Shown piece by piece: positions 15,095 to 58,568 of a stretch of DNA of 64,000 nucleotides. Every line of letters starts with the position of its first letter. The first letter of the stretch is position 1. A program made the translations under genes and the position numbers. This DNA comes from an uncultured Methanolobus sp. (GTDB taxonomy: Archaea; Halobacteriota; Methanosarcinia; Methanosarcinales; Methanosarcinaceae), in assembly GCA_963675495.1 (NCBI GenBank), contig OY776215.1, positions 2,592,001-2,656,000 of the forward strand, given 5' to 3'. Under the pieces are notes generated by a model, which saw nothing but the letters and a program-made list of their open reading frames with translations, was not told the DNA's origin and made no database searches.

Positions 15095-15361
15095 ATGTCT
15101 GAGGTAAATGAGTCTGACAGATTTGAGTGCGTTGTCGTTAATGTGATTGACACACTTATGTGGAAAGGAGTGGTTGTCCAGGAGGTCGAATCTGGTGGGC
15201 GTGTCTATTTCGGAAAGGTCAAGGCAGAAGGTTTCGCCTATGGTCCTGGGGACATTCTCTACATTGGTGTAAAACCACTTCCATATGAGCTTGAAGAAAT
15301 GAAAATGGAAGTTTCCCTCTACGATGCCGATAATCAAAGGCTTGACTGGACTTTCCTTTAA
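15095..15361 (+). CDS. Small hypothetical protein
   Basis: 88-aa ORF with GGTGG RBS, co-oriented just after the AAA gene and convergent on rnz. Confidence 0.7.
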   Translation: MSEVNESDRFECVVVNVIDTLMWKGVVVQEVESGGRVYFGKVKAEGFAYGPGDILYIGVKPLPYELEEMKMEVSLYDADNQRLDWTFL

Positions 15362-15371
15362 TCTTTATTTC

Positions 15372-16307
15372 TTATTTCGCTTTTTTCCTTTTTTTGTCCA
15401 TATACGGTATGTCAATTTCCATTAGGTCCTCGGCGACTATCACATTGCCGTATATTGTTTTAGCTTCTTCATGCAGCAGTGTGGTATCGTCTGAGTATCT
15501 GGAACTGATGTGCGTAAGTACGAGTTTCAGGACATTTGCTTCTTTTGCAAGGGTAGCAGCTTCTTCTGCAGTAGAGTGCATGGATTCAATGGCCCAGTCT
15601 TGCTGCTCTTTTGTAAGTGTGGATTCATGTATCAAAAGATCTGCATCCCGGCTTGCTTCCAGTATGGCTTTGCAGGGTCGTGTATCACCGCTGTATATAA
15701 TTTTCCTTCCTGGGCGGCTTTCCCCAACTACATCTTTAGAGTGTATCATTTTTCCATCGACTTCTACAGATTCTCCTTTGTGGAGTCTTGAAAAGAGCGG
15801 ACCTGGTGGGACACCGAGATTGATCGCTTTCTGGCGATTGAACTTTCCTGTCCGCTCGTTCTCTATGAGTGCATAACCAATGCTTGGTATGCTGTGTTCC
15901 GTTTTTATGGCCATAATGGAGTAATCATCTCTTTTGATCACATCGCCTGGTTCAAGGTCTATGGCATCTATTTCAAAGCGTAACTTATAGTATCCAAGGG
16001 CGCTGAGTATCCTGGCAAATTCATGTATCCCGTGAGGTCCGTATATTTTCAAAGGTTCGGTTCTTCCGTGGAATGACATTGTCTGTATGAGCCCGGGAAT
16101 TCCAAGTATGTGGTCTGCATGGAAATGTGTTATGAATATGGAGGACAATGCTTTCATTCCTGTCTTTGCACGCATCATCTGTTGTTGGGTTCCCTCTCCA
16201 CAATCAAAAAGCATCAGCTCACCTTCACGGTTTATCATGATAGCCGATGGATTGCGTTCAGGTGTTGGCAGGGATCCTCCAGTTCCAAGAAATGTTACGC
16301 GAAGCAT
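15372..16307 (-). CDS. rnz: Ribonuclease Z
   Basis: FLGTGG, DCGEG, THFHADH, GVPPGP exosite, SGDT, HEST, THISSRY. Confidence 0.97.
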   Translation of the reverse strand: MLRVTFLGTGGSLPTPERNPSAIMINREGELMLFDCGEGTQQQMMRAKTGMKALSSIFITHFHADHILGIPGLIQTMSFHGRTEPLKIYGPHGIHEFARILSALGYYKLRFEIDAIDLEPGDVIKRDDYSIMAIKTEHSIPSIGYALIENERTGKFNRQKAINLGVPPGPLFSRLHKGESVEVDGKMIHSKDVVGESRPGRKIIYSGDTRPCKAILEASRDADLLIHESTLTKEQQDWAIESMHSTAEEAATLAKEANVLKLVLTHISSRYSDDTTLLHEEAKTIYGNVIVAEDLMEIDIPYMDKKRKKAK

Positions 16308-32464: not shown

Positions 32465-33187
32465 TTATTTTTTCTTGTCAAGGAAGTAAGCGATTGCAAA
32501 GAATCCAATTGCTACAAAAATAAGGACTATCCAGTTCGATTTTTTGCTGTTATCTATTTCCGGAATATCTAATTCATTTATTCCACTTTCTTCTGTTTGG
32601 TCAGGTGTGCTTGCCAGAAACATTTCGTCATTTTCATTTGAATCGGTATCTTGCATGATGTCAGATGTGAATACTCCATCTACACCGGTTATAGTAATTA
32701 CTGAATCAAATGTTGTTGTTGTCAATTCTTCTCCCAGATGATTTCCAAGCACGATGTTTGTGATTCTGATCTGACAGGGTCCATGGTTTGATCCTGCTTG
32801 GAGCTTGATCGTGCAGAAGATGCCTTCATTTTCCACGCCTTCTCCTCTTATAAGTGAACTATATATCTGTGAAACCGTTCCTGCTGATTTGTTAATGGTT
32901 CCTGGGTTGAATATTACTGGTGAATCACTACTTGCAAAAAAAATTCCTTCTTCAATGCTATTGATGGCTACAAGGGAGTTATCGTATGTAAGATCAAATT
33001 GCAAACCATAGATTGGTGTATCCGGTTCGATATAGACACCAAGTTCGAAAGTTTCCCCTGACCTCACTTCTTGTGCAGAAGGGATTATGCTGACACTTGT
33101 GGCTGCAATTGCCATTCCTGAAAAAAATACAAGGTATGCTGCGATAAAGATTGCACATATTGCAATCTTTGTAGTTGCTTTTCGCAT
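32465..33187 (-). CDS. Cohesin-domain cell-surface protein
   Basis: Signal peptide, GLQFDLTYD...IEEG...FNPGTIN cohesin-like pattern, acidic linker, C-terminal TM with KKK tail. Confidence 0.75.
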   Translation of the reverse strand: MRKATTKIAICAIFIAAYLVFFSGMAIAATSVSIIPSAQEVRSGETFELGVYIEPDTPIYGLQFDLTYDNSLVAINSIEEGIFFASSDSPVIFNPGTINKSAGTVSQIYSSLIRGEGVENEGIFCTIKLQAGSNHGPCQIRITNIVLGNHLGEELTTTTFDSVITITGVDGVFTSDIMQDTDSNENDEMFLASTPDQTEESGINELDIPEIDNSKKSNWIVLIFVAIGFFAIAYFLDKKK

Positions 33188-35775: not shown

Positions 35776-35852
35776 TGGTGGGCCCGATGAGATTCGAACT
35801 CATGGCCTCACGGTTATCAGCCGTGCGCTCTACCTAGCTAAGCTACGGGCCC
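35776..35852 (-). tRNA. tRNA-Ile(GAU), CCA encoded
   Basis: Reverse complement GGGCCCG...CACGG-CTGATAA-CCGTG...TTCGAAT...CGGGCCC-A-CCA. Confidence 0.97.
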
Positions 35853-50977: not shown

Positions 50978-52840
50978 ATGGATAATCCAATTGCAGAAGA
51001 ACTTGCCAAGAACCAAAAATCAATAAGTGTCGCTGAGTTCTTTGAAAAGAACAGGCAGATACTGGGTTTTGACTCTGCTCCGCGAAGTTTGATCACAACG
51101 GTCAAGGAAGCAGTGGATAACTCTCTTGATGCGTGTGAAGAGTCAGAGATATTGCCGGATATATTCCTGCACATAGAGCGGTCAGGAAAGGATAACGTAA
51201 TTATTATAGTGGAGGACAATGGTCCGGGGATAGTTAAAGAACAGATTCCCAAGGTATTTGCAAAGCTATTGTATGGTTCAAGATTCCATGCGATCAAACA
51301 GAGTCGTGGCCAGCAAGGTATTGGTATATCGGCTTCTGTGCTATATTCTCAATTGACATCAGGTAATCATACAAGGATCATATCCAAAATAGGTCACGGA
51401 AATCCTGCTCACTATTATGAGCTTATGATAAATACCAGCACAAATGATCCTGAGATACTCAAGGATGATATTGTGGACTGGGATAGGCCACATGGTACAC
51501 GCGTTGAGATGGAAATGGAGGCTTCTTATGTAAAGGGAAGAAGACAATCCATTTATGAATATCTTAAGGCGACTGCGATTGTAAATCCACATGCCCGACT
51601 AACTCTTATAGAGCCTGATGGCAATGAAGTGGTTTTTGAGCGTGCAACCGATAAGCTTCCGCTTCCTGCAAAAGAGATTTTGCCTCATCCTCATGGGATA
51701 GAGCTTGGTACTCTCATGAAAATGCTAAGATATACCGAGAGACAAAAATTGTCTCCTTTCTTGCGTTATTCATTTTCCAAGATAGGGCATCTGGCTTCTG
51801 AAGAGATATGCAAGGCTTCAGGTCTTGATCCTGATACGGACCCTCATGAAATGAGCAGGGAACAGTCTAAGAAGTTGCTTGACGCATTCTCTAAAGTCAA
51901 GATAATGGCCCCTCCAACTGATTGTTTATCTCCGATCGGTGAAGAGCTTATTTACAAGGGACTTGAAAAAGAATTCAGTGTTGATTTCATAGCCACCACG
52001 ACCAGAAGTCCTTCAGTTTATTCAGGAAGCCCGTTCATTGTTGAAGTGGGTATTGCATTTGGTGGTGAATTGCAAAAGGATGATCGTGTGGATATCATGC
52101 GTTTTGCAAACAGGGTCCCTCTTCTGTACCAGCAGGGTGGCTGTGTGATAACGCATGCCATCGAGTCAATTAAATGGAAGCAGTATGGATTGAATCAACC
52201 GGGTGGTGGATTGCCTTCAGGGCCTGTTGTTGTTCTGGTGCACGTTGCTTCAACAAATGTTCCTTTTACTTCCGAATCTAAAGATGCAGTTGCTGATATC
52301 CCTGAAATAAAGGATGAGGTCGAGCTGGCAATAAAGGAAGTTTCAAGGAAAATGAATCGCTATCTTAACAAACGTGATAGTCTCAAAAAGAGACGTGAAA
52401 AAGAAGTAATAATCACAAAAGTCCTTCCAAAAATGGCACAGAAACTGGCTGATACTCTTGATCGTGAGGTTCCTGACATAAATCCTGTTGTTGCAAAGGT
52501 CATGGGTAACCTTCTTGTTGACAGGATTGTTGAATCGAATGGAAATGGGGGAGTTGATGTGTCTATAAGGGTCAAGAATTTTTCCAGCAAAAAGCAGGAT
52601 TTCAAGGTCCATGACATGGCTCCATTTGAAATAGAAAACGCGATTCCTGAGGCTAAGGTCATAAATATGGGTAATGATTTTGATTATATATGGGACCTCA
52701 GTGTTTCTCCGGGTTCTTCTAAGGTTGTAAAGTATTCTGTAGCGAGTCTTGAAGATGCAGAAATATCAAGGATGCCTTCACTTATAGTTGAGGGTCTTGA
52801 CGAAGAGCTTGTTACCGGTGCTAAAGCTATAAAGGGGTGA
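50978..52840 (+). CDS. top6B: DNA topoisomerase VI subunit B
   Basis: [41 protein letters not shown]. Confidence 0.97.
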
Positions 52841-52844
52841 GTGA

Positions 52845-53954
52845 ATGGCAAAAGAGATATCCCAACAGAAAAAGGAACATGATGAGATAGCAAGCAACCG
52901 TTTATTGGGTCTTGCAGGGGAATTTTACGATCAGTTCATTGATGAGATTGTCCCGAAAGTCTCGCTTCCCAGTCGTACAAAGGCAAATATCGAGTATAGT
53001 GAGGACAGCGATGTCTGGGTATATGGTGACAGGGAGACGGAGAGAAGTGCAAAAACCGTAAAAGGTGCTTTCCAGTTACTGAAGACATCTCATGTGATTG
53101 ATTTTCTTGTGAATAACCACCTGGGACAGAACAGGGGCTCAACTTTAAGAGAATTATATTATATTTCGGAGAACTGGGATATAGCCAAGTTCCGCGAGCA
53201 GCCTGAAAGTGACAGGCTTATAGAGGATCTCGAGATCATCTCCGGTCTTCAGAGGGAATATTTCCATATGCGTCCTGAGGAAGATGGGGCTACTATGTTC
53301 GGTCCTATCCGTCTGCGTGAGGAAACAAAGCGTGGTGATCGTATCATCCATTGTCAGGAGGACATTGGTGAAAGTGGTTATCAGATTCCTTTCAATGTAG
53401 AGAATATTGAATTCCTGGATACTGATGCGAAATTCATAATTGCCATTGAGACTGGTGGTATGTACGCCAGGCTTATTGAGAACGGTTTTGATGAAAGGAA
53501 TGATGCAATACTTGTTCACCTTAAGGGTCAGCCAGCACGCTCGACCCGGCGTATCATTAAGAGGATGAATGAGGAAATGAATCTGCCTGTAGTGGTGTTC
53601 ACTGACGGTGACCCCTGGTCATATCGTATTTTTGCTTCTGTGGCATACGGTGCTATCAAAAGTGCCCACCTGTCCGAGTACATGGCAACTCCTGGTGCCC
53701 AGTTCATTGGTGTTCAGCCATCAGATATCGTGGAGTATGAACTATCCACGGATAAATTGACGGATAAGGATGTAGCTGCTCTGAGAAGTGAACTCACAGA
53801 TCCAAGGTTTGAAAGTGATTACTGGAAAGAACAGATAAGCCTGCAACTTGATATTAACAAAAAAGCAGAACAGCAAGCTTTCGCAGGAAAAGGTCTTGAC
53901 TTTGTAACGGATAAGTACCTGCCAGAACGTCTGACGGAACTCGGGATACTTTGA
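52845..53954 (+). CDS. top6A: DNA topoisomerase VI subunit A
   Basis: TLRELYY catalytic Tyr, [28 protein letters not shown]. Confidence 0.97.
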
Positions 53955-53964
53955 TATCCCGTTT

Positions 53965-54666
53965 CTAGTTTTTTCTGTTCCTCGGTTTGAAATTCCTGCA
54001 TATTGCACTTTGGGATACTTTCATTGCCTTTGTATCTGCATGGTGGCAAATGCCATTTTTTTGGAACTTGCATGACTTACAGGCATATACTTTCAGGTTG
54101 AGATTGTCCTGTATTGCCTTTTCTTTGATCAGGTCTTCTCCACAACCCTTGTGGTACTTGATATCTCCCTTACTGCAATTCAGTGCCTGTGCCAGAAGCG
54201 AGCTCACAGCAGGTGGTTCCCATCGAGTATATGTCTGGTTCACAGCCATTTTTTTTGTAGGTATAAATGCCGTGGCTCTTGTTCCGCCATTCTCTTCGAT
54301 GGACTGGGTTAACTTTTCTATTTGGTCTTTTATCTTGTCATTGTCTGGCTGTTGTTTTAATGCCTTTGCCATAAAATTCAGCGCAGCTTCGTTCCTTCCA
54401 AGTTTCTTAAGGGCCAGACTTTTGTTATACAATGCAGGTACAAATCCTGCCATATTGTATTGGCTAAGGATCTTGTCATAGCATTCAATAGCTTCGTGGA
54501 ACTTCTCTTTTTTGTGAAGGAGCATACCTTTGTTATTCAAAGCAATAGGATTGTTGGGGTCCAATTCCAGTGCAAGGCCAAAATAATGCCTTTTCTTTTC
54601 AGGGTCTTTTTCGCTGAGTCCCTGTTCTATCCATTTATTGGATTCTTCGGAAGTCCTTTTTCTCAT
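53965..54666 (-). CDS. TPR-repeat protein with Cys-rich C-terminal domain
   Basis: ALELDPNNPIALNNKG and further TPR repeats; C-terminal CKSCKF...CHH...CRNF. Confidence 0.8.
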   Translation of the reverse strand: MRKRTSEESNKWIEQGLSEKDPEKKRHYFGLALELDPNNPIALNNKGMLLHKKEKFHEAIECYDKILSQYNMAGFVPALYNKSLALKKLGRNEAALNFMAKALKQQPDNDKIKDQIEKLTQSIEENGGTRATAFIPTKKMAVNQTYTRWEPPAVSSLLAQALNCSKGDIKYHKGCGEDLIKEKAIQDNLNLKVYACKSCKFQKNGICHHADTKAMKVSQSAICRNFKPRNRKN

Positions 54667-55003
54667 TGATTGGGCTATTCTCGGAATTCTATATTACTCT
54701 TCTCGCCAGACATGGCTCATTTGTGTGTTGCCAGGTAATGTTAATTTACACTTTGTCCGAAAAATAGGGCACTTTTCGGTCAAGAATGTTAATATTTGGT
54801 TAACACCATGATTTTTTGGTTAAAAACAGTATTCTTCGGTCAAGCTGAGAAATATGGTGACGCTTGCTCCATATTCTTGACTGCATCTATTAAAAAAATA
54901 GGAACGTATGTGATTTACTGTTGGTTGTAAATCAGATTCAAATTAAAAAAGTGAATTTAATGAACCAATTTGAAGTTGATTCATTTCAGATGCTATTAGC
55001 ATG

Positions 55004-55218
55004 AGGATTGATGGGGAGGTATTAGAGCTTCAGAGAGCACAGACTTTCATTGATGGGGGTGTTTCAAGCAGTGGTTATTGGCTTTGACTCCAAAGGATGC
55101 TAGAGAATTTGGGATTAAGCACAGGAGCACTCTATAGAGGATGAAAGACAGGGCTCTGAGTGATGGGAAGTTCAATTTCAGGACAAAGGAGGTGAGGAAG
55201 TTGGCAAGTGGATTTTGA
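55004..55218 (+). pseudogene. Relic of the C-terminus of a casposon-type family B DNA polymerase
   Basis: Hand translation RIDGEVLELQRAQTFIDG/FKQWLLALTPKDAREFGIKHRSTL*RMKDRALSDGKFNFRTKEVRKLASGF*, one frameshift and an in-frame TAG at 55135; resemblance recalled, not searched. Confidence 0.55.
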
Positions 55219-55333
55219 CACTTGCCTTTTTTAGTATATTTATATTTTTTTCCCCTCATATAACCAATCCTGAATCAGCATGTTGCATTGCAACTTTTGT
55301 ATCATACTTTTCCTAAAATATGTGCAATTCCGA

Positions 55334-55528
55334 TTTGACAGAGAATTATATCATAACAGAAATCTGGTTGAAACGATGTTCTCTATTCTGAAAAAAAATA
55401 TGGTAAAGAAATAAGGGCAAAAAGGTATTGAATCAGCTAAAAGAAGTCAAGTTCAAGCTATTAGTTCATAACCTTGACATACTTGTTAAAGTTATATTTG
55501 CTGTGAATATGAGAATTTTTTCAGAACC
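55334..55528 (+). mobile_element. IS5-family transposase 3' remnant with degenerate right end
   Basis: FDRELYHNRNLVETMFSILK (Y-R-E-K) then, after frameshifts, [10 protein letters not shown] and [16 protein letters not shown]...MRIFSEP. Confidence 0.8.
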
Positions 55529-55715
55529 AAATTTTAAGTATATTTTCAAGGCATATGGTGATGATGATGAGCATCATATTTTTTTGTTATGCAATATGCT
55601 TATATGCAACAAAATTGAAGGAAAAGTAACTATAAACTTCTATTGTGCATTATTTTTTCTTTGATGCATAATATGGGGAATAGTGTGTGAATATGGTATA
55701 AAAGGTGGTATCGAA

Positions 55716-56657
55716 ATGAATTTAAAGCACAATTTACGAAAAATAATACTTTTAACTATAATTCTGATATCTCTCACATCAGTTGCTTGCGCACCGGGAA
55801 TATTGGGGTACAAATATCAGGAACTGGGTGACGGATCTGACTATTTGAATCATGCGCTCGAAGGATGGAATATTTATTTGTACAACAAGGAATTACCTGA
55901 GGGTGTAGCTCCATCTATTGGTGGCGAAGGTTATCTAGCACATAGGGTCACAAATTCAGATGGTTATTTCTCTTTTTGGAGTACCAGTGGTCTTTCATAT
56001 GGCAATACCTATTATGTTTATGAGGAACGCCAATCTGGATGGACACAGCTTACTGGGGGAATCTACCCTGCAGATAGTTACTATATAGTGACTCTTGAGG
56101 ATACGCCCGAAAATCATCGATTCGAGACTGCAAACTTCGTTAACTGGGAAAATGGTGAAGAATGTGGCGATGAAACTGCTTGGGCAGCTCAAGATGAGCC
56201 GGGGGTAAACCGATTTGTTGATAAAGGAAATTGGGGCACCTATGTGCTATACAATAAAGGTGACGGTGAAGAAAATGGACCTATGATCTACCCTCTATAT
56301 GCGGGACAGACACATCTAGCCGGCTATCTTTATGTCTATGATGTAAAAGATACCCTATATGTAAGGTATGTTTCATCTCTTATGGACAGCGATTATATGG
56401 GTGGATACACTGGTGCATGGATTGGAATGACTGAGTATCATCTACAGGTAGTTGACAACTTTGCTGATTTCAGGGCTAATGGATACACAAACAAAAAAGG
56501 TAACCCAAGACCTGGACAGTTTGATTACTCAGAGGAATATGATGAAGCAACCGATGATACTGGCTATATCAAAATCCCTATAGGTGGATATGATGAAGAG
56601 ATTCACATAGCTGCTCATAGTGTCATGTGCTGGTCAGGTTTTCCTAAAACATTGTAA
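55716..56657 (+). CDS. Secreted protein with SdrD-B/CnaB-like domain and uncharacterised C-terminal domain
   Basis: Signal peptide; GYKY...LEGWNIYL...TNSDGYFSF...YYVYEE...GWTQ; C-terminal ETAWA, LYAGQ, GNPRPGQF, IAAH. Confidence 0.75.
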   Translation: MNLKHNLRKIILLTIILISLTSVACAPGILGYKYQELGDGSDYLNHALEGWNIYLYNKELPEGVAPSIGGEGYLAHRVTNSDGYFSFWSTSGLSYGNTYYVYEERQSGWTQLTGGIYPADSYYIVTLEDTPENHRFETANFVNWENGEECGDETAWAAQDEPGVNRFVDKGNWGTYVLYNKGDGEENGPMIYPLYAGQTHLAGYLYVYDVKDTLYVRYVSSLMDSDYMGGYTGAWIGMTEYHLQVVDNFADFRANGYTNKKGNPRPGQFDYSEEYDEATDDTGYIKIPIGGYDEEIHIAAHSVMCWSGFPKTL

Positions 56658-56668
56658 TTGGCATTAGT

Positions 56669-56695
56669 AGTCAGGCATTTATCCTGACTTTTTTT
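56669..56695 (+). terminator. Hairpin plus T-tract terminator
   Basis: AGTCAGG-CATTTAT-CCTGACT followed by a T run. Confidence 0.7.
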
Positions 56696-56831
56696 CTTAT
56701 AATTTGTAAGCTTCAATAATTTATGCAGATCATTTTAGTTGCTTCATTCTCAATTGATTGTTCAGGAGGAATACTCTTCTTTTTCACTTTTTTAAAATTT
56801 GTAATCTAGCAAAAATAATGATTGATTAATT

Positions 56832-56864
56832 ACCGTTGCGTTTTTTGGTTATTACTATTACCCC
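56832..56864. mobile_element. Candidate casposon terminal inverted repeat (single end)
   Basis: ACCGTTGCGTTTTTTGGTTATTACTATTACCCC, ending in a C-run as casposon ends do; similarity to the Methanosarcina mazei TIR is from memory. Confidence 0.45.
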
Positions 56865-57097
56865 AAATGACTCTTCGAGATGTTGTATTCGAACCTGATT
56901 CAAGAATAAATGAAATATATTAATCAAAACTTGACAGGACACATTCGATTCTATTCATTCTGAAAATATGGGGAATCTTATTTTTAATCTGTATCAACTA
57001 ATTAAATGTGTTCTGTGTAATTTTCAATCTAAGTGCTTTTTCGGACAAAGCGGTTAATTTAAAAAAGTTTATATATGAACTGTTCAAACCAAGCAAC

Positions 57098-58183
57098 ATG
57101 TTTTTGAATGAAACTATTCCGCTCTACATCAATAAGTTCGTAAGTTCCCAATCCGGGGTATTGGGGTCGGACATTACGGCGGCCACAATTGTGATAGTGG
57201 CCTCTGTTATCCTTGCTTTTATTGCAGATCTTGTGTTTGAGAAGATTTTCCTGCGTTATGCTGCAAAAACAAGGTATGATTGTGATGATCTGATTGTGAA
57301 AGCATTCAAAAAGCCAATTTTCTACACAGTATCCTTTTTTGGTGTATTCATTGCTGTAGAAATTCTATTTCCGGGAAATCTTGTGATAGAAGTAATAATG
57401 GGCTTACTCCTTACAGTTCTTGGCATCGTATGGATACTGGCTCTTTTGCGTATCAATAGAATCCTTTTCGAACATGTATTTTCAAGTCTTGTCAGGAAAA
57501 CCGATTCTAAGATGGATGATGAGCTGCTCCCGCTCTTTAAGAACATCATTAATGTCCTTATCGTCTTCTTTGGTTTCCTTGCAATACTCAAAGGTGTATG
57601 GGATGCGGACATATTGCCTCTTTTTGCTTCGGCAGGAATTGTAGGTCTGGCTGTTGCCTTTGCAGCACAGGACACAATATCCCAGTTCTTTGGTGGTCTT
57701 TCCATTTACTTTGACCAACCATTCAAGCCAGGGGATAGGATAGAGATCGATGATGGTGAGATAGGTATTGTTCAGGAAGTCGGGCTTCGTAGTACAAGGA
57801 TAAAGAATCTTGAGAACAACATGATAGTGATACCCAACAGCCTGATAGCGAACAGTAAAGTGACTAATTACACTTCACCTGAGGAATTCATGTTGGTAAA
57901 AGTGACAATTGGTGTTGCATATGGTTCTGATGTTCAGAAGGTTAAGGACATTCTTACGGGGATTGCAGAAAGTGTAGATTCTGTTCTTGATGATCCATCT
58001 CCTTATGTCCGATTTGACAATCACGGTGATTTCAGTCTTGATTTTGCCATAGTAATGTGGGTAACTCATCCGGGTGAAAAATTCCCGGTTATCAATGAGG
58101 TAAACACAAAGATCAATGCAGAGTTTGAAAAAGCAGGAATAGATATTCCATTCCCTGTTCGAACTATTATTCATCAACATTGA
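57098..58183 (+). CDS. mscS: MscS small-conductance mechanosensitive channel
   Basis: GLAVAFAAQD, DQPFKPGDRI, VGLRSTRI, IPNS, IGVAYGSD, GIDIPFP. Confidence 0.93.
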   Translation: MFLNETIPLYINKFVSSQSGVLGSDITAATIVIVASVILAFIADLVFEKIFLRYAAKTRYDCDDLIVKAFKKPIFYTVSFFGVFIAVEILFPGNLVIEVIMGLLLTVLGIVWILALLRINRILFEHVFSSLVRKTDSKMDDELLPLFKNIINVLIVFFGFLAILKGVWDADILPLFASAGIVGLAVAFAAQDTISQFFGGLSIYFDQPFKPGDRIEIDDGEIGIVQEVGLRSTRIKNLENNMIVIPNSLIANSKVTNYTSPEEFMLVKVTIGVAYGSDVQKVKDILTGIAESVDSVLDDPSPYVRFDNHGDFSLDFAIVMWVTHPGEKFPVINEVNTKINAEFEKAGIDIPFPVRTIIHQH

Positions 58184-58189
58184 AGTAGC

Positions 58190-58214
58190 TTGCAGGAAAT
58201 TCTCCTGCAATTTT
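58190..58214. terminator. Hairpin between convergent mscS and cutA
   Basis: TTGCAGGA-AATTC-TCCTGCAA inverted repeat then ATTTT. Confidence 0.55.
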
Positions 58215-58250
58215 ATAATTTAGTTGTACCTTGGTTACATGGGGATTAAC

Positions 58251-58568
58251 TTATTCTGTAGCTTCAGCTATCCATTTGAGGTATTCCTTTTCACCACTGA
58301 TCTTCCAGGATATTATTGCTGGTAGTTCATAGCTGTGAATGGTTTTTATGTATTGTATGACAGAATTTACGTTGTTGCTTGTGGTTTTTACAGAAAGTGC
58401 TATTTCTCTTTCTTCCTCTACCGTTCCTTCCCATATATAAACCGAATCAATAGGATGCATATTGACGCAGGCAGCAAGCTTTTGCTCAACAAGGTTGGAG
58501 GCGATTGTTTTTGCTTCTTCTTTGTTTTTTGTTGTTGTATAAACTATGGAAAACATTGTATATCGCAC
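58251..58568 (-). CDS. cutA: Divalent-cation tolerance protein CutA
   Basis: LVEQKLAACVN, SVYIWEG, HSYELPAII. Confidence 0.93.
   Translation of the reverse strand: MRYTMFSIVYTTTKNKEEAKTIASNLVEQKLAACVNMHPIDSVYIWEGTVEEEREIALSVKTTSNNVNSVIQYIKTIHSYELPAIISWKISGEKEYLKWIAEATE

Follow-up and report, generated by a model that had tools for sequence, protein, structure and literature searches.

A probable casposon fossil nested within a second, precisely bounded insertion in a complete Methanolobus genome

We analysed a window of 64,000 nucleotides (nt) from the complete genome of an uncultured Methanolobus species (G000; 2.87 Mb, 100% complete; the window is G000:C1:2592001-2656000) and found that the intergenic DNA in front of mscS very probably holds a dead end fragment of a casposon of the family-2 type, in which a broken end of the polymerase gene polB, a stump of an IS5-family insertion sequence (IS), an intact cargo gene and the right terminal inverted repeat (TIR) lie within a second insertion, here called X. 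Other G-numbers stand for comparison genomes and L-numbers for loci drawn from these or from G000; G189 is the closest relative of G000, with flanks that are 90-92% identical to the window. Since the insert lacks a casposase gene, a whole polymerase and a second repeat, the fragment cannot move as a casposon, and expression of the cargo gene would be its sole plausible present activity. A first-pass annotation of this DNA had already described the distal end of a casposon with an intact cargo gene of secreted type, and that part stands, the checks proposed with it having turned out favourably; deletion of the casposon in place is less secure, and the fragment may have arrived already truncated. 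Beyond that annotation, we recognized the IS5 remnant (55333-55529) and the full extent of the inserted DNA (54749-57052).

Translation of the polB stub (Table 1) confirmed the peptides that had first been read across one frameshift and one TAG: the first frame, from 55004 or 55007, gives (R)IDGEVLELQRAQTFIDGGV, and the second, from 55066, gives KQWLLALTPKDAREFGIKHRSTL, a stop, RMKDRALSDGKFNFRTKEVRKLASGF and a final stop, such that the damage amounts to a single frameshift near 55056-55065 and the TAG at 55135-55137, where relatives have the lysine codon AAG, ahead of the native TGA stop at 55216-55218. The suggestion that this patch is the C-terminal tail of a casposon PolB was borne out by comparison with an intact polymerase of 886 amino acids (aa), of the kind that is paired with Cas1 in relatives: the 50-residue second peptide is identical to residues 837-886 at 35 of 50 positions (E 7e-23), with the TAG aligned to a lysine, and tblastn matched the stub to residues 816-832 (55004-55054) and 836-886. 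Only broken residues ~816-886 of the 886 are left, including a helix-turn-helix-like tail, such that no family-B DNA polymerase persists here. At the nucleotide level, the stub shares 79-84% identity with polB 3' ends, reaching 84% with a fossil in G199 and 79% with G000:408647-408873, and its identity to intact polB genes (81% and 79%) falls below that to the G199 fossil. Protein and nucleotide matches alike thus mark it as a fragment of a casposon core gene.

The opposite end of the fragment was recognizable too, and both matches go well past what chance would give. A 33-mer at 56832-56864 that had been likened to a casposon TIR does contain one: bases 56834-56864 agree with each of the two TIRs that bound a complete casposon in G194, with 0 mismatches over 31/31 bases. 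The ...ACCCC end points outward, with the stub behind it, which is the orientation that the right end of an element on its left should have. The order of tail, cargo and TIR mirrors that of the G194 element. This comparison was made with casposons of the same genus and not with the M. mazei TIR; four substrings of the TIR had 0 occurrences in the text of PMC6977970. When up to 3 mismatches were allowed, a 25-mer core of the repeat was found at 40 sites, spread over 20 of the 177 genomes of the family and present in 17 of the 35 of the genus, as against 1 match in the 177 genomes for the reversed core, and the type-A TIR is carried by 1 of the 59 genomes of genus g15. In G194, G188 and G200, intact polB genes are enclosed by pairs of TIRs spaced 8-10 kb from each other. 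Within G000, the exact 25-mer is confined to the window and, on the other strand, G000:407186-407210, 2.24 Mb apart. The bases that follow the TIR (CAAATGACTCTTCG) are those expected as the casposon's target-site duplication (TSD), given that tandem casposons in G194, in G166 and at 404 kb in G000 are separated by spacers of 14 nt, and the 14 bases past the TIR are alike in the window and in fossils of G199 and G190.

Other stretches that might have been parts of the element were rejected. The T-rich bases at 55218-55235, directly past the polB stop, were considered as a second TIR, being 78% like the inner TIR, but relatives are merely T-rich there and the ...TATTACCCC end is absent. A decayed 3' half of a tRNA in 56865-56900 was dismissed because its stems are unpaired by eye and ARAGORN called no tRNA. 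The closest tRNA that ARAGORN found lies at 35776-35852, in line with the earlier remark that no tRNA adjoins the fossil; that this should imply a rearrangement or another target holds by half, as intergenic targets are published (PMC4779613) and the fossil sits inside another insertion bounded by TIRs and a TSD. Elsewhere in the window, a 31-mer at 32533-32563 has 7 mismatches to a type-B casposon TIR (AGTTCGATTTTTTGCTGTTATCTATTTCCGG) and may reflect either chance or the decay of a solo TIR; in a control, 40 shuffled 31-mers gave 39 matches at up to 9 mismatches.

Table 1. Features of the insertion and of its flanking duplications, in window coordinates
Feature	Position	Strand	Basis
Left TSD GTTAATTTA, 9 bp	54740-54748	.	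Identical to right copy
X left arm; terminal repeat CACTTTGTCCGAAAAA at 54749-54764, then TTCGGTCAAG-type subterminal repeats	54749-55003	+	Repeat match
Casposon polB pseudogene stub, last ~70 codons	55004-55218	+	Sequence comparison with intact polB
Dead IS5-family right end: ~66 codons of the transposase C terminus, split over two frames, and a degenerate terminal repeat	55333-55529	+	Nucleotide identity to intact copy
Intact cargo gene, 313 aa	55716-56657	+	Open reading frame, translation
Casposon right TIR (type A), outer end on the ...ACCC(C) side	56834-56864	+	Identity to G194 TIRs
14 bases expected as casposon TSD, CAAATGACTCTTCG	56864-56877	.	Inferred from 14-nt spacers
X right arm, ending in terminal repeat TTTTTCGGACAAAGCG at 57037-57052	56865-57052	+	Repeat match
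Right TSD GTTAATTTA, 9 bp	57053-57061	.	9/9 match

Evaluating the relatives of this fragment revealed casposons of the kind from which such ends would derive. Besides the window, G000 holds four copies of the tail, and the one at 403959-405074 runs upstream, past one in-frame TGA, into a polymerase fragment that bears the motif YMDTDS and whose N-terminal part was removed by an intact IS5-family element. A 372-residue piece of this 404-kb copy, used as the query across the order, was matched in 76 of its 284 genomes, with 74 of the 176 of the family and 28 of the 35 of the genus, mainly by open frames of ~890 aa, often several inside 20 kb; the closest named relatives of the G000 casposon polymerase are on contigs of Methanolobus metagenome-assembled genomes. 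In the five genomes examined, Cas1 frames of 400-407 aa lay on the opposite strand, 3.6-4.9 kb from the polymerase match, in 11 of 11 cases. The Cas1 of G194 carries PF01867 (E 4e-67) and matches, end to end, PDB 6opm (E 2.9e-183), which we take to be the M. mazei casposase. Its locus (L027) is a complete element of 10.4 kb, with perfect 32-nt inverted repeats around cas1 and polB, that also holds a DUF4238 gene, a DDE transposase and small open reading frames (ORFs) that gave no Pfam match, and a second casposon adjoins it in tandem. In G166, an array of casposons adjoins a tRNA-Leu gene.

The fossil lies inside a precise insertion of 2,304 bp (54749-57052) in the promoter region between the gene for a 233-aa TPR protein (53965-54666, minus strand) and mscS, which encodes an MscS-type channel and begins at ~57098; top6B (50978-52840) and top6A (52845-53954) precede the TPR gene. 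The termini of the insert, CACTTTGTCCGAAAAA and the complement of CGCTTTGTCCGAAAAA, agree at 15 of 16 positions, and the insert is flanked by a 9-bp duplication. It had been proposed that this locus, beside top6A and mscS, would prove empty in relatives, and G189 has the empty site at base level: window positions 53900-54748 and 57053-58300 meet directly there, overlapping by 9 bases, such that a single GTTTATTTA stands at the flank junction, which reads ...CAGACAAT GTTTATTTA AAAAACC.... Among the matches listed, the two flanks lie no more than 250 bp apart on one contig in at least 17 of 35 relatives, and are separated by gaps of 581, 1,378 and 1,434 bp in three further ones. As a check on the assembly, DNA contigs of the same organism span the stretch with 0 differences, with breaks at the TIR repeat.

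Duplicated GTTAATTTA (54740-54748) and the adjoining TTTATATA (57053-57075) look by eye like TATA-type elements in the promoters of the two divergent genes and, if this holds, the insertion may have left each gene a promoter copy. Two relatives carry differing inserts of ~1.4 kb in the same intergenic region (G179, L034 2719-4152; G195, C1:1458067-1459444), which suggests that inserts land repeatedly in this AT-rich region of divergent promoters. In G179, the 1,434-bp insert was considered as a counterpart of X and rejected, as it holds an unrelated gene.

Sequences like the ends of X recur across the genus, the left terminus having been seen in 8 of 36 genomes. The right arm is 69-72% identical to that of a copy at G000:2023644-2024606, which is 963 bp long, non-coding and flanked by its own 9-bp duplication, GTGAAACAG. 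A copy in G174 (C6) measures 996 bp, has ~95-nt mirrored arms and a membrane-protein gene, and is flanked by the 9-bp CAAGTTAGG; one in G173 spans 1.6 kb with two ORFs; and one in G199 ends in ..TTTGGACAAAGCG with GGTTCTAAGGT on both sides, such that several copies come with a duplication of their own. Several genomes have solo arms, and the left arm of the window is 74% identical over 219 nt to such an arm in G189 (L049 8657-8871). That solo left arm (L049, G189:C1, 7700-8887) stands right after an rlmE-like gene and ahead of an IS5-type element whose two ORFs (122 and 132 aa) overlap; the arm's homology to the window ends within a few bases of the window's junction between arm and polB. There are also minimal copies of 55-58 bp, with little beyond two terminal repeats (L076, G175:C2 ~2002019-2002074; L077, G187:C66 ~15330-15387). 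At G000:127380, a sequence that matches the X terminus falls within a DEAD-box helicase gene and was rejected as chance.

The five X copies that we read showed no transposase ORF recognizable by eye, bar the IS5 stump of the window. By analogy with mobile insertion cassettes, the ends of X would mark a small family of elements in this genus that carry passengers and have no transposase of their own. It is seemingly an undescribed cassette-type element; we found no description of an X-like family in the literature searched, a search that did not extend to ISfinder.

Between the stub and the TIR lie two further features, the IS5 remnant and the cargo gene. Peptides of the IS5 stump include YHNRNLVETMFSILKKN, and its DNA is 80% identical to the 3' end, terminal repeat included, of an intact 307-aa copy at G000:402941-403864, whose IS termini were identified and which is typed as IS5 by PF01609 and by NF033579 at 232.9 bits. 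The window stump is like this IS5-family (NF033579) element in its 3' end and terminal repeat, and differs from it in having kept about one fifth of the element, with a broken reading frame. A pair of IS5-type terminal repeats of the same family (GGCTCTGTAGGAATCC ... GGATTTCTACAGAGCC), ~130 bp in all and empty between, forms a miniature inverted-repeat transposable element (MITE) at L046 15087-15217.

The cargo gene has a GGTGG ribosome-binding site upstream and a hairpin with a T-run at 56670-56695, and its product starts with an N-terminal hydrophobic helix ending in ..SVAC. The protein matched nothing above the Pfam cut-off and no NCBIfam family; ten homologues of 46-52% identity were found in a collection of 5.8 billion proteins, and the protein family is rare, being present in 16 of 177 genomes of the taxonomic family. 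An AlphaFold model of it is all-beta (pLDDT 69.5, pTM 0.50), and Foldseek against the PDB returned none at E <= 0.001, the top match being the pilin SpaD (E 5.6e-3, TM 0.19). From model and sequence, we predict a secreted or anchored all-beta protein. Complete casposon relatives have variable genes in the corresponding place, between the end of polB and the TIR.

To set the fossil in context, we looked for cas1 and polB through the rest of G000, as had been proposed, and found no intact gene, terminal stubs only: tblastn with full-length queries gave C-terminal stubs of Cas1 at 3 places and of PolB at 5, the longest PolB piece covering residues 446-883 and being split by IS5. A PF01867 (Cas1) profile search of the whole genome gave no match and so revealed no casposase gene; the Cas1 stubs are missed by this Pfam model because they fall beyond its domain. 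They lie on G000:C1 at 132614-132934, 317366-317470 and 1141661-1141830, none of them in the insert. As cas1 and polB are transcribed outwards, their C-terminal stubs are the parts nearest the TIRs, and the casposons of G000 seem to have been hollowed from the middle outward with the tips kept. A Cas1 and a PolB stub 1 kb apart at 317-319 kb were considered as a 'mini-casposon' and rejected, having no inverted repeats or TIR cores.

The order of tail, cargo and TIR is shared with other loci, namely G000:407186-408930, G000:787134-789534, which is another TIR-plus-tail pair, and sites in G199, G190 and G197. At G000:C1:402049-408930 (L006 7049-13930), two casposon carcasses lie with their polB ends facing one another. 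The 402-kb carcass spans 5.1 kb, with type-B TIRs at 402049 and 407143, an IS5 within polB, a TPR-protein cargo and near-identical 14-mers, ATAACTTTCAATTG and ATAGCTGTCAATTG, at its flanks; 12 nt past it follows a mirror image of the window fossil, with an exact type-A TIR (407186-407216), a cargo gene for a 420-aa zinc-ribbon protein and then a polB tail 79% identical to that of the window. Three species have a common casposon-end fossil at the gpmA-nudC locus (L046, G199:C13, 13035-15616; L047, G190; L075, G197), where the cargo varies from a 513-aa histidine kinase in G199 to two small ORFs in G197, and where the polB tail of G199 is an intact ORF of 85 codons.

How far these data identify a casposon has to be weighed against several findings that speak to the contrary. 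Searched at up to 9 mismatches, the insert has no partner TIR, and no 14-bp duplicate of CAAATGACTCTTCG survives in it, so that integration of a casposon at or near this site is not demonstrable. The intact 886-aa polymerase of the G194 element is itself weakly matched, both in Pfam (PF00136 at 24.6 bits, with a cut-off of 23) and in the PDB (5mdn, E 8e-4), such that its identity as a polymerase leans partly on the YMDTDS motif and on context, and the label of family 2 is one that we apply by resemblance in sequence rather than by phylogeny. The cargo homologues showed PolB pieces or TIRs at 0 of 9 loci within ~1.5 kb on each side, and it is therefore by its position alone that the gene counts as cargo of the original casposon. 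With regard to X, a non-exhaustive search found no autonomous partner with X-type ends among 72 pattern matches in 36 genomes or in the loci read, and the case for its mobility is therefore made by TSDs and empty sites alone. One might also ask whether stub and repeat only look like parts of a casposon and stem from a different mobile element with a PolB, for instance a provirus or a plasmid. Pfam is silent on the 50-aa stub peptide, PF00136 is barely reached by the intact polymerase, and a PF03175 profile search of G000 gave no match, all of which would suit such an origin; close kin of the stub (79-84% at the nucleotide level), however, are 3' ends of polB genes that lie 3.6-4.9 kb from Cas1 genes and, where examined, these polB genes sit in elements whose TIR equals the 31-mer of the window. 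We regard this origin as already contradicted, with next to no probability left to it. Hardly better placed, and in our judgment very unlikely, is the idea that the tail has been retained as a working gene for a small helix-turn-helix protein, such as a regulator that the casposon left behind: unbroken tail frames of at least 80 codons do occur at G000:408673-408909 and in G199 (an 85-aa ORF with a TTG start), whereas the frame in the window is broken by the frameshift and the TAG, and its second part has no preceding start codon.

The harder question is how the dead end came to lie within X. A casposon end, captured or truncated, may have become joined to X ends once, and this chimera may then have transposed, in which case the truncated end would have been carried to this locus as a passenger of X by a transposase acting in trans; an IS5 element would once have landed behind the casposon polB. 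The X-borne copies of the window, of G000 at 2,024 kb and of the gpmA-nudC locus share a common junction between TIR and right arm, and all are without the cas1 side. Set against this history, the junction between arm and tail in the window differs from that in the G199 and G197 copies, and the cargo differs among copies, which argues against one simple ancestral chimera. The alternative is that X inserted first, that its right arm held a preferred target into which an entire type-A casposon next integrated, and that all but the polB-proximal end was later lost through the IS5 insertion and internal deletions, a history that we rate somewhat short of even. Unlike junctions and unlike cargo are what such decay in place would leave, and the like 14 bases past the TIR in the window, G199 and G190 are as expected for a sequence-specific target. 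Moreover, the 963-bp X copy has two tandem TIR remnants beside the homologous right arm (a B-like one at 2023918-2023948 with 7 mismatches, and an A-like stretch seen by eye), a pattern that matches the repeated insertion into the same target in G194, in G166 and at 404 kb in G000, and a flank divergence of 8-10% from the nearest relative leaves time for decay. On the other side, that three X-borne copies are all without the left TIR and the cas1 side and retain only the polB side is more simply explained by one truncation followed by spread, the window tail is nearer to the G199 fossil than to intact polB, no relative has X or a casposon at the locus among the matches listed, and G000 is without a casposase today. 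On balance, we lean by a little towards a passenger chimera over decay in place, and the choice is not settled.

Taking these observations further, it is possible, if rather doubtful, that X is an undescribed archaeal cassette transposon that moves host and mobile DNA and leaves a 9-bp duplication, one lineage of which took up the polB-proximal end of a casposon, or else that X bears a preferred casposon landing site. Were the cassette reading true, the cargo genes and TIRs of casposons would spread among these methanogens with no casposase at work; were the landing-site alternative true, X and casposons would colonise each other. Casposons have been proposed as ancestors of the CRISPR adaptation machinery, and solo TIRs as the seeds of CRISPR repeats, and under either scenario a route other than Cas1 would place solo casposon TIRs at new loci, which bears on that idea of repeat origin. 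The locus further presents a well-resolved case of casposon death from the middle outwards, with tips and cargo gene kept, and a casposon tip nested in an unrelated insertion bounded by TIRs and a TSD offers a testable case of ends and cargo moved by a second transposition system. For the annotation of G000, it accounts for an orphan secreted-protein gene and 2.3 kb of puzzling intergenic DNA before mscS.

Among known systems, X compares most readily with mobile insertion cassettes, a term used in PMC4337579 and PMC2266710, and with passenger-carrying MITEs: it has short terminal inverted repeats, a 9-bp duplication in three copies, no transposase recognized by eye in the copies read and variable passenger DNA, with sizes from 55 bp to 2.6 kb. 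It differs from mobile insertion cassettes in that we found no cognate insertion sequence with X ends, and its mobilisation in trans is inferred.

The casposon side of the locus resembles the family 2 casposons of Methanosarcinales (Krupovic et al. 2016, PMC4779613), to which the MetMaz elements of M. mazei belong. Family 2 is marked by the clade of its Cas1 and PolB and by an HNH nuclease and two helix-turn-helix proteins. In the portions of PMC4779613 at hand, M. mazei casposons are described with a 14-bp TSD, intergenic and tRNA-Leu targets, tandem copies, remnants and solo TIRs, and our relatives agree in their ~400-aa Cas1, the polymerase gene on the opposite strand, the TIRs, the 14-nt spacers, the position of the G166 array beside tRNA-Leu, the TPR-protein and DDE-transposase genes among the variable content and degraded copies that outnumber intact ones. 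The window differs from these in being one end, without cas1 and without the 14-bp duplicate; non-autonomous derivatives of casposons were not described in the titles or abstract openings of the literature found. Terminal remnants of casposons are thus already published for Methanosarcinales, and what is added here is the base-exact nesting in a second element and the pattern of decay, neither of which alters knowledge of how casposons work. Whereas the remnants reported in the same portions of PMC4779613 are solo TIRs at the casposon's own target, the remnant in the window consists of a TIR together with 1.8 kb of the casposon next to it, enclosed by the TIRs and the 9-bp duplication of another element.

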